A DNA stretch of 48,739 nucleotides from Candidatus Pacearchaeota archaeon (GCA_016186365.1 JACPLT010000015.1:1-48739); one strand, 5' to 3'. Shown: positions 2,429-48,739, counted from the stretch's first letter. Notes: a model not told the origin generated them from the sequence alone. Program-made: numbers and translations.

Positions 2429-3043
2429 ATGTTATTCCACCTAAAAGAACCAGACTATGAAAGAGAAGCTCCAAAAGATATTACTACTCGATTTTATGGA
2501 AGAACTTCAGAACAAATTCTAACAACCTTAGATTACTATGCTAAAAGAACTGAAAAAGAAGGGAATGCAGAAAATCCAAATAGGGTTTGGTGGTTAAAAA
2601 GAGAATTCTCAGTTAAAGATATAGAACAAGTCAAGACAGGAGAATTTTATTTTTTTACAGGCATGATATATGTAGGAGAAGAAGTTAAAGATCAAAAATT
2701 GTTTGAAAAAATTAGGATAGGAGAGGATTTCAATATTGGTGTACCTCGAGAGAATATAGGGAATTTTGCACTCTGGAGAATGTATATTCTAAAAGAAAAA
2801 AGAGCAGAATTATACAAACTACAAAATCCTATTCCTGCATTTATGAACATTTCATTTGTTCCTGAAGATATAGCTATAGCAATAATTAATTGTGATTTAA
2901 CTCCTTATGAAAATGCAGTTAGAGAGGATTTGGCTAGAAGAGCAGAATTATCTAAACATCCTAATGTGAAAGTAGATATTCTGCAGGAAATCCTTAAAAA
3001 TCAATCAAAAGTTCCTGATATTGGAAATCCATCGCAAAATTAA
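2429..3043 (+). CDS. hypothetical protein
   Basis: 204-aa ORF with non-repetitive composition. No motif recognised. Confidence 0.5.
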   Translation: MLFHLKEPDYEREAPKDITTRFYGRTSEQILTTLDYYAKRTEKEGNAENPNRVWWLKREFSVKDIEQVKTGEFYFFTGMIYVGEEVKDQKLFEKIRIGEDFNIGVPRENIGNFALWRMYILKEKRAELYKLQNPIPAFMNISFVPEDIAIAIINCDLTPYENAVREDLARRAELSKHPNVKVDILQEILKNQSKVPDIGNPSQN

Positions 3044-14469: not shown

Positions 14470-14594
14470 GCGCTATTAGTTTATCGGTAGAATGAAGCCT
14501 TCCCAATGTAAGGAACCAAGGTTCCTTAACACTCAACCTCCTAAAAATAAAAAGGAAAAAGGCTTAGAGCCGGGTTCAATTCCCGGATGGCGCA
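14470..14594 (+). tRNA. tRNA-Gly(CCC) with a 54-nt intron at 37/38
   Basis: Acceptor GCGCTAT/ATGGCGC (one G-U). D arm GTTT-ATCGGTA-GAAT. Anticodon stem AAGCC/GGCTT with loop TTCCCAA (CCC at 14502-14504). T arm CCGGG-TTCAATT-CCCGG, discriminator A, no encoded CCA. Confidence 0.85.
14506..14559 (+). other. tRNA-Gly intron (canonical position)
   Basis: TTCC (32-35) pairs with GGAA (14554-14557), flanked by 3-nt bulges, giving bulge-helix-bulge geometry. Contains hairpin GGAACCAAGGTTCC. Homologous to the tRNA-Asn intron. Confidence 0.75.
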
Positions 14595-20086: not shown

Positions 20087-20419
20087 ATGGTAAACAAAGA
20101 TAAAAGAGAAGAAAAATCCACAGTTTTTAGTTTTAGGTTACCAAATAATTTGCTTAATGAAATTGATAAAATGGCTAAACAAGAACAGATTGATAGAGCT
20201 TCATGGATAAAACGAGCAATGGTTATAGCAATAGGTGAGCTAAGAGATTCAGCAGTTGAAGGAGCTATCGAAGATTATATTGCTGGAAAAATTGATGACG
20301 ATTTGTTTATCAAAGAAACAGAAAATAAACAAGTTCCACAAGATATTAAAGAAGCTAGAAAGAGGCATATTACCCATTTAGAAGAAAGGCTAACGAATAA
20401 AAGAGTTAAAGGAAAATGA
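20087..20419 (+). CDS. ribbon-helix-helix (CopG/Arc-like) DNA-binding protein
   Basis: TVFSFRLPNNLLNEIDKMAKQEQIDRASWIKRAMVIAI fits the RHH beta-alpha-alpha pattern. ATGA overlap with the next gene. Confidence 0.75.
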   Translation: MVNKDKREEKSTVFSFRLPNNLLNEIDKMAKQEQIDRASWIKRAMVIAIGELRDSAVEGAIEDYIAGKIDDDLFIKETENKQVPQDIKEARKRHITHLEERLTNKRVKGK

Positions 20420-21822
20420 AAAAGTTAATATTTGGCTTGTTTTTAATTATTTCTTTTATTAGTTCAGTTTCTGCTTGCCAATATAAAGTTAATGAAATTT
20501 ATCATGAAGTAGAAATGGGATTATATGACTCTTCTGGAAATTATGTGGGCGAACCTTTAATACTAAGCAATTTTAGTGGAGGATATCAAAATATTGCTGG
20601 ATGTGGACCATTGTCTATAATCATTTCAAATCCTCTTTCTTTTGATATAAACGTTGAGATTAATTTTACTGCAAGACATGATGGAATAATCGGTTGGCCC
20701 CAAGAAGATTATTTAATATCTAGAGCGATTACCATTAAATCGTTTTCATCAGAACAAATCGTGGGGGATTGCCCTTCGGTCGGAGGATCTAGATTATTAG
20801 AAGATTCTATTGAGTATGTAATAACTTCTCCAAAACTACTTATTCCTAAAATGCAAGAAGTAGAAAAGCAAAAAGAGATTTGTAAAATTTGTCCTAATGA
20901 AAAACAATGTTTGGATGATGGTGCTTCTTGTGATTTACCAATAGTATGTGGTTCAAATATCTGTAATCCCGATAATAAATGTGGAACCTTTCAAGGATGT
21001 TCCCAAGGCAAGAAATTATGTAATAACATTTCATGTTTAACTCCTTCAATTAAAAAAACCGAAGAGGCTTACTTATGTGATTGGGAATGTGCTTCTGGAA
21101 CAATAGCTTGTAATGGAATATGCAGGAATGTTTCTTCAAAGAAAATCGGACAGGAGTATTATTGTATTGAAGAATGTAAATCAGGATATGGCAAAGAGAA
21201 TAAATGTATAAGAAATCCCAATGTAGCTAGAAATTTATTAATTCTCTTTATCTCAATTATCCTTTTAATTCTAGGAATAGCATCTTATTTTATTATAGGG
21301 GCTATTAATGAAAAACGTGGAAGAAGGAAAGAGAAAGAGATAATAAAAGAAGCTGAAGAAAAAGCTGAAAAAATAATTAGCTCAGCTAAAAATAAATTAA
21401 AAAGGCTTAATGATGAAATTGAGAAATCTGAAAAATTAAAGACAGAACTTAACTCCCTAAAAAAAGGAAGTATCGAAGCCAGAAAAATAAAAAAAGAATT
21501 GGAAGAAACTAACGAATCAATTCAAAAAGAGAGAATAAGACAAGAAGAAGAAATTAAAAATACTTTGGAAGCATATGAAAAGAGATATAGTCATAGGTTT
21601 GTATTAGATAATAAAGGATATATAAGATTTGCTAAAGGATTTATTAGTGCGGGTATTGGGGGATATTTACATAGGTGGATATATAAGAATGTTCATGGGA
21701 AAATAAACGATGGATATGAAATTCACCATAAGGATTTTAATAAATTTAATAATGAAATAAACAATCTTGAAGAGTTAACTCCTAAAGAGCATCAAAATAA
21801 ACATCTTAATAGGTATAGATAA
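20416..21822 (+). CDS. single-pass membrane protein: lipobox-like signal, Cys-rich ectodomain, TM, coiled coil, C-terminal HNH nuclease
   Basis: Signal MKKLIFGLFLIISFISSVSAC. 20 Cys, most of them in the ~100 residues before TM LLILFISIILLILGIASYFIIGAI, then NEKRGRRKEKE (positive-inside). K/E-rich coiled coil, followed by HNH motif YEIHHKDFNKFNNEINNLEELTPKEHQNKH. Confidence 0.75.
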   Translation: MKKLIFGLFLIISFISSVSACQYKVNEIYHEVEMGLYDSSGNYVGEPLILSNFSGGYQNIAGCGPLSIIISNPLSFDINVEINFTARHDGIIGWPQEDYLISRAITIKSFSSEQIVGDCPSVGGSRLLEDSIEYVITSPKLLIPKMQEVEKQKEICKICPNEKQCLDDGASCDLPIVCGSNICNPDNKCGTFQGCSQGKKLCNNISCLTPSIKKTEEAYLCDWECASGTIACNGICRNVSSKKIGQEYYCIEECKSGYGKENKCIRNPNVARNLLILFISIILLILGIASYFIIGAINEKRGRRKEKEIIKEAEEKAEKIISSAKNKLKRLNDEIEKSEKLKTELNSLKKGSIEARKIKKELEETNESIQKERIRQEEEIKNTLEAYEKRYSHRFVLDNKGYIRFAKGFISAGIGGYLHRWIYKNVHGKINDGYEIHHKDFNKFNNEINNLEELTPKEHQNKHLNRYR

Positions 21823-34840: not shown

Positions 34841-35155
34841 ATGGAGCAATATAATCAACAGCCAACAGAATTTGTAAGAGTAAAACTTCCGAGAGGAAGG
34901 GAAATTCTAGGAATAATCGAGCAAAGAGTTGGTGGAACAAGAATGCAGGTAAAATGTGTAGATGGTAAACTAAGAAACTGCAGAGTTCCAGGAAGGCTAA
35001 GAAGAAGTCTATGGTTAAGAGAGGGAGATATAGTAATAGTAGAACCCTGGGAATTCGATAATGAAAAGGGGGATGTTCTTTTCAAATACAATCCTACTCA
35101 AATTCAGTGGCTCGAAAGAAAAGGGCATCTTAAAAATATTAAAAATGAATTCTAA
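34841..35155 (+). CDS. eif1a: translation initiation factor aIF1A
   Basis: S1-like OB core: VRVKLPRGREILGIIEQRVGGTRMQVKCVDGKLRNCRVPGRLRRSLWLREGDIVIVEPWEF. Confidence 0.9.
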   Translation: MEQYNQQPTEFVRVKLPRGREILGIIEQRVGGTRMQVKCVDGKLRNCRVPGRLRRSLWLREGDIVIVEPWEFDNEKGDVLFKYNPTQIQWLERKGHLKNIKNEF

Positions 35156-35699
35156 CATACAGGAAAAAGAAGAGAGAATAATAGGAATTCTAAAACCTCA
35201 AACAATCAGGAAAATAGCTGCAAGCAGGAAAAAGCTGGAAATTTCTCTCAAAACAAAAATTAGCATAAAAAGCAGCATAATCACTGTTTCTGGAAGCGAG
35301 ATTAATAACTATCTGGCAGAAAAAGTATTTGAAGCTTTAGACAGGAATTTTCCAATAAATGTTTCTCTTCTTCTTTTAGACGAAGACTTCATTCTTGAAG
35401 ATATTTTAATTAAAGAGATAACAAAGAAAAAAAATATACCCATAATAAGAGCCAGAATAATAGGGACAGAAGGAAAAACCCTCAAAGTATTGGGAGAGTT
35501 GTCAAACTCCTATGTAACCTTAAACGACAACACAGTAAGTGTAATCGCTCCTTCCGAAAACATAAAAGAAATAACCAATGCTATAATAAGTTTAATCAAC
35601 GGAAGCAAGCAGGCTAAAGTTTATGCCTATCTTGAAAAAAACAGAAAGAAGAAGATTTTCTCAAAAAACAAGATAAGCGACAATCCTAGTAAGCTTTAA
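35145..35699 (+). CDS. KH-domain RNA-binding protein (Dim2/Pno1-like)
   Basis: The ORF track starts at 35061. ATG 35145 overlaps the aIF1A stop by 11 nt. The KH-like block is ARIIGTEGKTLKVLGELSNSYVTLNDNTVSVIA. Confidence 0.65.
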   Translation: MNSNIQEKEERIIGILKPQTIRKIAASRKKLEISLKTKISIKSSIITVSGSEINNYLAEKVFEALDRNFPINVSLLLLDEDFILEDILIKEITKKKNIPIIRARIIGTEGKTLKVLGELSNSYVTLNDNTVSVIAPSENIKEITNAIISLINGSKQAKVYAYLEKNRKKKIFSKNKISDNPSKL

Positions 35700-35725: not shown

Positions 35726-35856
35726 GTCCCAGTAGCTCAGCAGGTAGAGCAACTGACTGTTAAAGCGCAGGAAACCAAGGTTTCCTACCGCACTACCTTC
35801 CTTAAAGAAGCTAAATTGAAATCAGTGGGTCGTTGGTTCGAGTCCAGCCTGGGACG
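35726..35856 (+). tRNA. tRNA-Asn(GUU) with a 58-nt intron at 37/38
   Basis: Acceptor GTCCCAG/CTGGGAC. D arm GCTC-AGCAGGTA-GAGC. Anticodon stem ACTGA/TCAGT with loop CTGTTAA (GTT at 35759-35761). Variable loop GGGTC, T arm GTTGG-TTCGAGT-CCAGC, discriminator G. TATA-like GCTTTAAAAAT lies about 25-30 nt upstream. Confidence 0.9.
35763..35820 (+). other. tRNA-Asn intron
   Basis: Contains hairpin GGAAACCAAGGTTTCC followed by TACCGCACTACCTTCCTT. The 22-mer at 35782-35803 recurs at 22262-22283 on the opposite strand. Confidence 0.8.
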
Positions 35857-48047: not shown

Positions 48048-48632
48048 TTAAGCCTTCTTTTCATAAATCTTTTTCACAATCTCTTTTCTTAATTTTAGTG
48101 TATTTGCCCATCTCGCATAAGCTTGCCAGCCTTGAAAAGATTCAAGAAATTTTTCTTTATTTATATTTCCTTCTTTATAATTTTTAATTTTTAAAATAAT
48201 TTTATTTATATTTCGCTTTCTAAGCAGTCTAAAATAATAAAAATTTCTAAAGCCTACAAAATCTACTCCTCCTGAAAGAGAAATTATTTTTGATTTTTGA
48301 GAGTGCAGTTCTATTTTTAAGTTATCTCTTAAAAAATCATTAATCTTATTCATCCATAATTCTAATTGTTCTTTAGAATTATGCAAAATAATAAAATCAT
48401 CTACATATCTTATGTAATATTTTGCTTTTAATTTATGTTTGACAAAATAATCCAACTCATTCAAATAAATATTTGCAAAAAATTGAGAAGTTAAATTTCC
48501 TAGAGGCATTCCAATACCCACTCTAACTTTTCCATTTTCTAATACTTTTTTAATCAGCCAGATAACTTTTTTGTCTTTTATTTTTTTTCTTATAATTTTG
48601 GTGAACCTCTCCGCAGCAAGCTGCGGAGCATC
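48048..48632 (-). pseudogene. DGR-type reverse transcriptase, 5'-truncated (motifs 1-3 missing)
   Basis: Motif 4 GMPLGNLTSQFFANIYL carries the DGR-specific [LIV]GxxxSQ. Motif 5 is YIRYVDDFII, with a thumb-like tail. The frame stays open upstream only to a TAA at 48633-48635, which is the stop of a tnpA-like ORF. No ATG start; the ORF track uses GTG at 48521. Confidence 0.7.
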
Positions 48633-48739
48633 TTAGATAAACTCAAATAATTTTAACTGCTCTCCTTTTCTTCCCTGATTTTTTATGTATTCCCTGATGA
48701 TGTCTGCATTAATCCCCTCCCCAACAGAAGCAACATAAC
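48609..48739 (-). mobile_element. end of an IS200/IS605-like insertion sequence (tnpA 3' end plus subterminal hairpin)
   Basis: Perfect 9-bp stem ctccgcagc (48609-48617) pairs with gctgcggag (48620-48628), immediately downstream of the tnpA-like stop. This is the arrangement expected for an IS200/IS605 end. Confidence 0.6.
48633..48739 (-). CDS. tnpA: IS200/IS605 TnpA (Y1 transposase), C-terminal 34 codons only
   Basis: The minus strand reads YVASVGEGINADIIREYIKNQGRKGEQLKLFEFI*, matching the conserved TnpA tail (GYFv.tVG...e.i.kYI.nQ). Truncated by the window edge. Confidence 0.6.
   Translation of the reverse strand, partial: YVASVGEGINADIIREYIKNQGRKGEQLKLFEFI

Follow-up and report, generated by a model that had tools for sequence, protein, structure and literature searches.

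The window, meaning the whole 48.7-kb stretch of DNA that was analyzed, has a GC content of 32% and carries genes of the archaeal informational type (MCM, ATP-dependent DNA ligase, TBP, aIF2-beta, L15e, MetRS, FtsZ, ArcTGT, and TYW3). Among public genomes, the 5' exon of its tRNA-Asn gene is common only to DPANN MAGs of Pacearchaeota and Woesearchaeota. DNA of the window was found in four groundwater metagenomes, and both tRNA introns described below are seen in genomic DNA of all four. Together these data mark the source as a DPANN archaeon. Neither an EndA gene nor an RtcB gene lies within the window. In its default bacterial mode, ARAGORN calls no tRNA in the entire 48.7 kb; with introns allowed, it reports Gly(ccc) with an intron of length 54 at position 37. 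The features of this gene are:

14470-14594 (+), tRNA-Gly(CCC) gene with intron (Rfam RF00005, 45.2 bits; ARAGORN in intron mode)
14470-14505 and 14560-14594 (+), exons 1 and 2 of tRNA-Gly(CCC)
14506-14559 (+), 54-nt bulge-helix-bulge (BHB) intron at position 37/38 (direct sequence reading; BHB scoring)
14495-14499 and 14561-14565 (+), outer helix of the BHB, AAGCC with GGCUU
14500-14503 and 14554-14557 (+), central helix of the BHB, UUCC with GGAA
14504-14506 and 14558-14560 (+), the two bulges of the BHB
14507-14542 (+), type-A module (model R1, 63 bits; MFE fold; covariation on alignment A3)
14507-14516 with 14521-14527 and 14529-14531 (+), stem of the module, A14528 bulged
14517-14520, 14532-14536, and 14537-14542 (+), loop CAAG, spacer, and tail CCUCCU of the module

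The 54-nt intron that the earlier note had placed at 37/38, from 14506 to 14559, has the same borders when called by ARAGORN with introns allowed. The BHB geometry first described for it is perfect in direct reading: AAGCC/GGCUU, a bulge C-A-a, UUCC/GGAA, and a bulge a-a-A, scoring H 4/4 and h 5/5. Its hairpin folds by MFE as UGU-AAGGAAC-CAAG-GUUCCUU-A-ACA. The orthologous Gly(CCC) intron in locus L160 keeps this architecture through compensatory changes. The second tRNA gene with a long intron lies about 21 kb downstream:

35726-35856 (+), tRNA-Asn(GUU) gene with intron (Rfam RF00005, 55.2 bits; intron-less homologues fix the junction)
35726-35762 and 35821-35856 (+), exons 1 and 2 of tRNA-Asn(GUU)
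35763-35820 (+), 58-nt BHB intron at position 37/38 (direct sequence reading)
35757-35760 and 35815-35818 (+), central helix of the BHB, CUGU with AUUG, containing a U·U mismatch
35761-35763 and 35819-35821 (+), the two bulges of the BHB
35765-35803 (+), type-B module (model R1, 25.3 bits, E=1.6e-4; MFE fold)
35765-35767 and 35789-35791 (+), basal helix of the module, GCG with CGC
35769-35775 and 35780-35786 (+), stem of the module, AGGAAAC with GUUUCCU
35776-35779 and 35796-35803 (+), loop CAAG and tail CCUUCCUU of the module

The Rfam tRNA model places an insert of 57-59 nt in the anticodon loop of both genes, in agreement with the 58-nt intron at 35763-35820 proposed for the second. ARAGORN labels this second gene Ser(tga), with the intron slid by 4 nt. 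We reject that label: because the variable loop is short (5 nt) and five intron-less tRNA-Asn relatives read GACTGTTAATCAGTGGGTCG across the exon junction, the gene is tRNA-Asn(GUU) with its junction at 37/38, where it can slide by one A. The hairpin of the Asn intron folds by MFE as GCG-C-AGGAAAC-CAAG-GUUUCCU-AC-CGC. Its BHB combines an outer helix ACUGA/UCAGU with a central helix CUGU/AUUG (C-G, U·U, G·U, U-A) and scores H 3/4 (one G·U, one U·U) and h 5/5; the central helix is thus weaker than that of Gly, as had been reported. An unrelated 25-nt tRNA-Asn intron of a DPANN archaeon (L008) has a matching U·U (CTGT/GTTG), so that the weak helix is a property of tRNA-Asn rather than a defect. 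The earlier note had read it as a sign of a relaxed-specificity splicing endonuclease, and such an enzyme may plausibly be present in the source archaeon, in line with published work that links the alpha4 EndA of DPANN, which carries an L3 loop, to more disrupted tRNA genes (PMC5829648). A KH-domain gene of the Krr1/Pno1 (Dim2-like) type at 35061-35699 (+) ends 27 nt before tRNA-Asn.

The hairpins and tails quoted earlier for the two introns are the same in direct reading and in the folds, and the hairpin has no further occurrence anywhere in the window. The claim that the introns can be aligned is borne out for part of their length. Homology is limited to the first ~41 nt, where each hairpin starts one or two nt past the 5' splice site and the basal helices of the two modules differ by compensatory changes. 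The 3' parts are A-rich linkers followed by 4 tRNA-specific nt that pair with nt 32-35, and to these the claim does not extend. A covariance model (R1) trained on 22 type-A copies, from which the Asn intron was left out, recovers that intron at 25.3 bits (E=1.6e-4) as the sole other significant match on both strands of the 48.7 kb. At gathering thresholds and at E<=10 alike, Rfam gives only the tRNA match for the introns. Literature searches on the core sequence and on DPANN tRNA-intron motifs yielded no description of the module.

The shared segment belongs to a family of dispersed repeats. GTDB species representatives were scanned with a hairpin pattern and then with a hairpin-plus-tail pattern, which yielded, among the matches listed, at least 119 module loci, mostly in Woese-, Pace-, Nano-, Micr-, and Iainarchaeota. 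The module, of ~41 nt, has a covarying stem of 10 bp topped by the loop CAAG, which is invariant, and continues with a spacer of 5-10 nt and a CC(x)UCCUU tail. A control pattern with the loop flipped to CUUG matched 33 loci in the 596 Gb scanned, nearly all of them in assorted bacteria and 3-4 archaeal; this sets the chance background and shows that loop and tail of the module are co-oriented. In alignment A3, 99.5% of stem cells are paired across the 22 type-A copies, none of 500 shuffles reaches the observed covariation, and the outermost stem pair (3-27) is UA in 17, GC in 3, and CG in 2. Across 90 distinct copies, the flanks of a copy pair better with each other than with swapped flanks (3.46 versus 2.09 ± 0.10). 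Covariation and own-flank pairing together argue that the stem is selected as a structure, which points to a single-stranded nucleic acid. The sequence of the tail follows that of the stem:

stem type A, 3' arm TTCCTT, dominant tail nCCTCCTT (nCCUCCUU in RNA), 33 of 35
stem type I, 3' arm TTCCCT, dominant tail CCCTCCTT (CCCUCCUU in RNA), 47 of 62
stem type II, 3' arm TTTCCT, dominant tail CCTTCCTT (CCUUCCUU in RNA), 36 of 42

This association is drawn from the DPANN and giant-virus sets and is not forced by the search pattern, and its counts are inflated by shared ancestry within subfamilies. The tail might base-pair with the stem's purine strand, or it might form a triple helix there. A second conserved segment, GGYUCARGRCUGA, occurs 10-20 nt past the tail in nine loci (L059, L152, L153, L171, L214, L230, L113, L141, and L201) and is absent from the Gly and Asn introns of the window. 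Five loci in Proteobacteria MAGs (L132, L200, L191, L170, and L215) have a GC-rich GGAGGGAACCAAGGTTCCCTCC followed by CCTCCCTCCTTC with perfect stems of 9-10 bp; these versions could be convergent or contaminant.

Placement was analyzed for 116 copies, taken from the retrieved loci and the window. Among the matches listed, tRNA introns hold 23 of the 116, each in the orientation of its tRNA. They cover ~15 anticodons (with BHB-corrected borders UCU, UCG, GCG, GGU, UAC, UAA, GCU, UUU, CAU, CUC, CCC, GCC, GAA, GUC, and GUU), and every one is at the canonical site 37/38, with none at noncanonical intron positions. Well-defined module introns have a canonical central helix and anticodon stem, the module stem begins at intron nt 2-3 in all of them, and their 3' ends are tRNA-specific. 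Near-identical modules resembling type B occur in the tRNA-Leu(UAA) intron of L059 and the tRNA-Val(UAC) intron of L052. The same loci hold 22 tRNA introns that lack a module. Seven other tRNA-Asn(GUU) introns at 37/38 have unrelated 5'-proximal hairpins; one (L396) has a degenerate AAAACCAAGGTTTT version. The unrelated hairpins indicate that a 5' hairpin set against the splice-site bulge is a general design, and the module is one recurrent way to supply it. A tRNA-Asn(GUU) gene of an uncultured archaeon (L007:~2700-2830, minus strand) has an apparent insertion in the T arm (GGGAGTTCGAAAAGTTGTGGCGAATAATCACAACTTGAATACGTCTCCC), which would be a noncanonical intron site.

Copies that flank tRNA genes fall in leaders or trailers and never within exons. 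Trailer copies share the strand of the tRNA and lie 1-3 nt past its 3' end (L050, L161, L166, and L228); nine copies on the strand opposite to the tRNA are 0-5 nt away from its 5' end (L113, L214, L230, L192, L213, L188, L204, L226, and L207). In L145, L227, L154, and L168, leader copies are flanked by directly repeated sequence, the initial 14-21 nt of the tRNA being duplicated; taking leaders and trailers together, duplications of tRNA ends span 12-21 nt (L154:595-803, minus strand; L145:290-370, plus strand; L227; L168; L032; and L228). A primer-binding site was considered for the 12-nt complement of tRNA-Gln in L032 and rejected because the complement of CCA is absent. The leader copy of L154 sits in a perfect BHB (11/11; CCUGUAGC/GCUACAGG, UCAU/AUGA, two 3-nt bulges). 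A BHB around every nonintron copy was also rejected, as only L154 (11/11) and perhaps L224 exceed the decoy level. The intron of the L154 tRNA-Arg itself contains a diverged unit, GGGAAAUUUCCC-AUU-CCUCCUUUU. One type-A module lies at 201-232 inside an archaeal RNase P RNA gene (L062:1-293; Rfam RF00373, 119.8 bits); a CCGUUC/GAACGG helix surrounds it, and a canonical BHB could not be fitted by hand. Intergenic copies show no orientation bias relative to neighboring genes, and their hairpin side tends toward the gene boundary. A coding reading of the opposite strand fails on stop codons that follow any possible start. In metagenomes of the source community, read depth over the module region is 20-40 times that of its flanks. 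RNA data sets gave no coverage in three comparisons: groundwater metatranscriptomes X7-X9 against L153, X13-X15 against a Micrarchaeota array, and X13-X15 plus X7 against the window tRNA-Gly.

A similar design occurs in giant viruses. Among the matches listed, the hairpin-tail pattern finds many loci in giant-virus contigs of IMG/VR, including L231-L348, and the flipped-loop control finds 11 loci only; units whose CAAG loop and tail point the same way exceed those with a flipped loop at least 10:1. The contigs are those of real giant viruses, with Rpb1 containing an intein, MutS, and PIF1 helicase. Their units read (T/A)AAGGGAACCAAGGTTCCCTT-NNGAT-CCCTCCTT or AAGGAAACCAAGGTTTCCTT-...-CCTTCCTT, and here too the stem covaries and the tail matches the stem subtype. 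They lie between genes, near gene ends, as convergent inverted pairs 70-130 nt apart or as tandem arrays (for example L236:10090-10185, L245:2319-2466, and L242:10725-11003). Some pairs lie between divergent AAAATTGA promoter motifs, no target duplication is seen at the inverted pairs, and one locus has a TnpB-like ORF 7 kb away. Units of the giant-virus type, including inverted pairs, also occur on L129, L131, L133, and L149 of the MAG 'Candidatus Shapirobacteria Bin_12_23', with further contigs of this type in the same bin (L157, L187, L221, and L367); the bin may hold giant-virus contigs. In Mimiviridae, transcript 3'-end formation depends on hairpins (PMC4402537), and the giant-virus units resemble those hairpins in being intergenic and near gene ends. 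However, palindromes under the Mimiviridae 'hairpin rule' are gene-specific, whereas the relatives of the module are one conserved sequence family that has a tail and is repeated, and the placement of some of their pairs between divergent promoters is also unlike that rule.

On balance, we think it probable that both introns of the window are ordinary BHB introns whose h' helix comes from a copy of a structured, duplicative repeat dispersed in DPANN genomes. Each intron comprises a 5' module of ~41 nt, an A-rich linker, and a 4-nt 3' segment complementary to tRNA nt 32-35. By the known pathway, EndA would cut in the two 3-nt bulges and RtcB would join the exons. Because the module stem begins at intron nt 2-3, it is predicted to provide the h' that flanks the bulge of the 5' splice site. 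This would also explain why intron copies are sense-only, since in no other orientation would the hairpin abut the 5' bulge, which in an inverted copy would have single-stranded RNA beside it. The repeat has probably settled repeatedly in tRNA introns and beside the ends of tRNA genes, as sites where it would be removed from the mature RNA or be harmless.

The two introns are then alike because each holds a copy of one repeat family (subtypes A and B), and not through wholesale co-descent. The near-identical 40-nt modules in tRNA-Asn, tRNA-Leu (L059), and tRNA-Val (L052) make it clear that the family has spread among genes, and we infer that the spread was duplicative. Of the two explanations offered in the earlier note for shared sequence, intron transposition is upheld insofar as there was spread among nonisoacceptor tRNAs, but what is shared is the 41-nt 5' module and not the whole intron. 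The other was a conserved function of the excised RNA; in this respect a stable circular intron may exist. Some features weigh against our main reading. An inverted partner within 400 nt accompanies only 5 of 101 copies, all in the Shapirobacteria bin, and no DPANN copy; duplications flanking DPANN copies have no fixed length. A reading of the DPANN copies as MITEs is rejected on both grounds. The related giant-virus family points to behavior at the DNA level. More speculatively, small circles bearing a piece of a tRNA could have integrated by a single crossover, which would fit the variable length of the duplicated tRNA ends.

That the likeness of the two introns is a chance resemblance of AT-rich spacers has a probability close to nil. 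It might describe the 3' parts, which are A-rich, of low complexity, and not meaningfully alignable, but it is refuted for the 5' segment by a covariance-model match (E=1.6e-4) with no others in the window, by near-identical 40-nt modules in other tRNAs of other genomes, and by the flipped-loop control, which returns background only. Supply of h' nevertheless leaves two things unexplained, the invariance of the CAAG loop and the conservation of a tail matched to the stem, and this makes a functional RNA, or a recognition site in single-stranded form, a serious rival. If the module were a functional RNA in its own right, tRNA genes would be its expression platform: EndA would free it from introns, probably circularised, and tRNA 3' processing would free the trailer copies, after which it might act in trans or fold specifically, for example by the pyrimidine tail pairing or triplexing on the purine strand AAGG(x')AA. 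Such a role would account for a loop and tail that are strand-specific and co-oriented by at least 10:1 over the flipped loop, for stem covariation and the three-way correlation of stem and tail, and for sense orientation in 23 of 23 intron copies. It also fits a hairpin side that always neighbors a processing site (the 5' splice site, a tRNA 3' end at 1-3 nt, or the complement of a tRNA 5' end at 0-5 nt), the perfect 11/11 BHB around the L154 leader copy, and the architecture preserved in the orthologous Gly(CCC) intron. We regard it as unlikely, given that intergenic copies have no orientation bias relative to flanking genes, most nonintron copies have no BHB above the decoy level, and giant-virus pairs lie between divergent promoter motifs. 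A related and equally tentative proposal is that the hairpin-tail unit is an undescribed class of small structured elements common to DPANN and giant viruses. It would be active as a single strand, either RNA excised at tRNA-processing sites or single-stranded DNA, and its tail would dock on the stem's purine strand through alternative pairing or a triple helix. Spread would take place from gene to gene, perhaps also across very different hosts, with tRNA introns as its safe harbors.

More specific functions fare worse. The tail, (UCA)ACCUCCUU, could copy the anti-Shine-Dalgarno sequence at the 3' end of 16S rRNA; the excised intron would then be a decoy or a regulator, with Shine-Dalgarno sequences or the 16S 3'-end factors Nob1 and Dim2 as its targets. 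Type-A tails (UCAACCUCCUU) and that of L211 (AUCACCUCCUUUA) each stand behind a hairpin, an arrangement that we take to resemble helix 45 and the 3' tail of 16S rRNA, and tRNA-Asn is closely preceded by a Dim2/Krr1-like KH-domain gene. The 16S 3' end bound by archaeal Dim2 is GGAUCACCUCC, and the type-A tail is similar to it. But the type-B tail of the same genome is CCUUCCUU and not CCUCC, the tail tracks the stem of its own element rather than a fixed sequence, and tails built in this way abound in the giant viruses of eukaryotes, where Shine-Dalgarno pairing is not used. We judge this mimicry very improbable, and the position of the KH-domain gene is probably coincidental. The earlier note had also named a guide RNA. 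For a modification guide (a C/D-box or H/ACA sRNA) encoded by the intron, there is a precedent, and a few longer copies have a downstream ...GGYUCAAGRCUGA that contains CUGA; neither window intron, however, has a RUGAUGA C box or a k-turn, Rfam returns only the tRNA match and no guide family even at E<=10, and a perfect hairpin occupies the would-be guide positions. Without C/D or H/ACA boxes, this function is effectively refuted by the sequence and we give it hardly any credence. A k-turn or L7Ae site was likewise discarded, there being no tandem G·A pairs and a bulge of only 1 nt.

In most respects, the introns of the window conform to canonical archaeal BHB introns. They share the 37/38 position, the two 3-nt bulges, a 4-bp helix formed by nt 32-35 and the 3' end of the intron, and the anticodon stem as outer helix, and their removal restores a normal tRNA. 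They differ in that h' is a long, sequence-conserved hairpin at the 5' end of the intron, and in that one hairpin-tail unit recurs in many different tRNAs. Furthermore, in the textbook hBHBh' motif h' adjoins the central helix, whereas here a single-stranded bridge of 15-80 nt runs between the 3' strand of h' and that helix. The haloarchaeal tRNA-Trp intron, which encodes a C/D-box sRNA, is similar in holding a conserved RNA module within a tRNA intron; the DPANN module, in contrast, lacks C, D, C', and D' boxes as well as a k-turn and matches no Rfam family.

The closest parallel for spread among tRNAs is in Thermoproteales, where related introns in different tRNAs have been ascribed to 'intron transposition' (reviews PMC4033280, PMC4090602, PMC4390854). 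As in those families, similar introns in nonisoacceptor tRNAs imply duplication or transfer over vertical descent. Thermoproteales introns, however, occupy many noncanonical positions, whereas DPANN module copies occupy 37/38 only. New relative to Thermoproteales are the lineage (DPANN), the sharing of the 5' module alone, the restriction to 37/38, and a module that is found beyond introns and, with the viruses of eukaryotes, beyond Archaea.

Dispersed short palindromic repeats include REP/BIME, Rickettsia palindromic elements, and MITEs. The module, as a hairpin repeat of 35-45 nt that is mostly intergenic, resembles these; it forms tandem arrays, enters a stable-RNA gene (the RNase P RNA of L062), and has giant-virus relatives in inverted pairs. 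It differs in that DPANN copies stand alone and lack both terminal inverted repeats and a target duplication of fixed length, and in being strongly tRNA-associated and sense-only in introns. REP/RAYT and IS200/IS605-type hairpin ends are mobilised by a linked HUH (TnpA/RAYT) gene; the module has a strand-specific hairpin and a conserved flanking motif, and any kinship with such ends would be tentative.

Gain of archaeal tRNA introns has so far been studied mainly through the Thermoproteales families, and DPANN provide a second, unrelated lineage. The 41-nt unit marks about half of the sampled introns, so that the gain and turnover of introns can be traced and tested. A simple structural filter may decide which insertions survive, to judge from the sense-only rule and the constant position beside the 5' bulge. 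The conserved loop, the stem-matched tail, and the like design in giant viruses hint at an unknown partner or fold; if homologous rather than convergent, they would constitute an unusual element family spanning archaea and viruses of eukaryotes. Since module-bearing introns defeat default tRNA finders, they contribute to the 'missing' or mistyped tRNAs of DPANN bins.

Two further genes of the window were noted. The C-terminal half of a reverse transcriptase lies at 48048-48521 on the minus strand and runs on toward the window end at 48739 (Pfam RVT_1, 6.7e-12). It has the motif signature of diversity-generating retroelements (GMPLGNLTSQFFANIYL ... RYVDDF), an in-frame stop just upstream, and N-terminal motifs that are missing or off-window. 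DPANN are rich in diversity-generating retroelements. At 20416-21822 (+), an ORF of 468 aa has an HNH_3 endonuclease domain at its C-terminus and no other Pfam match, and may encode a homing or mobile endonuclease.
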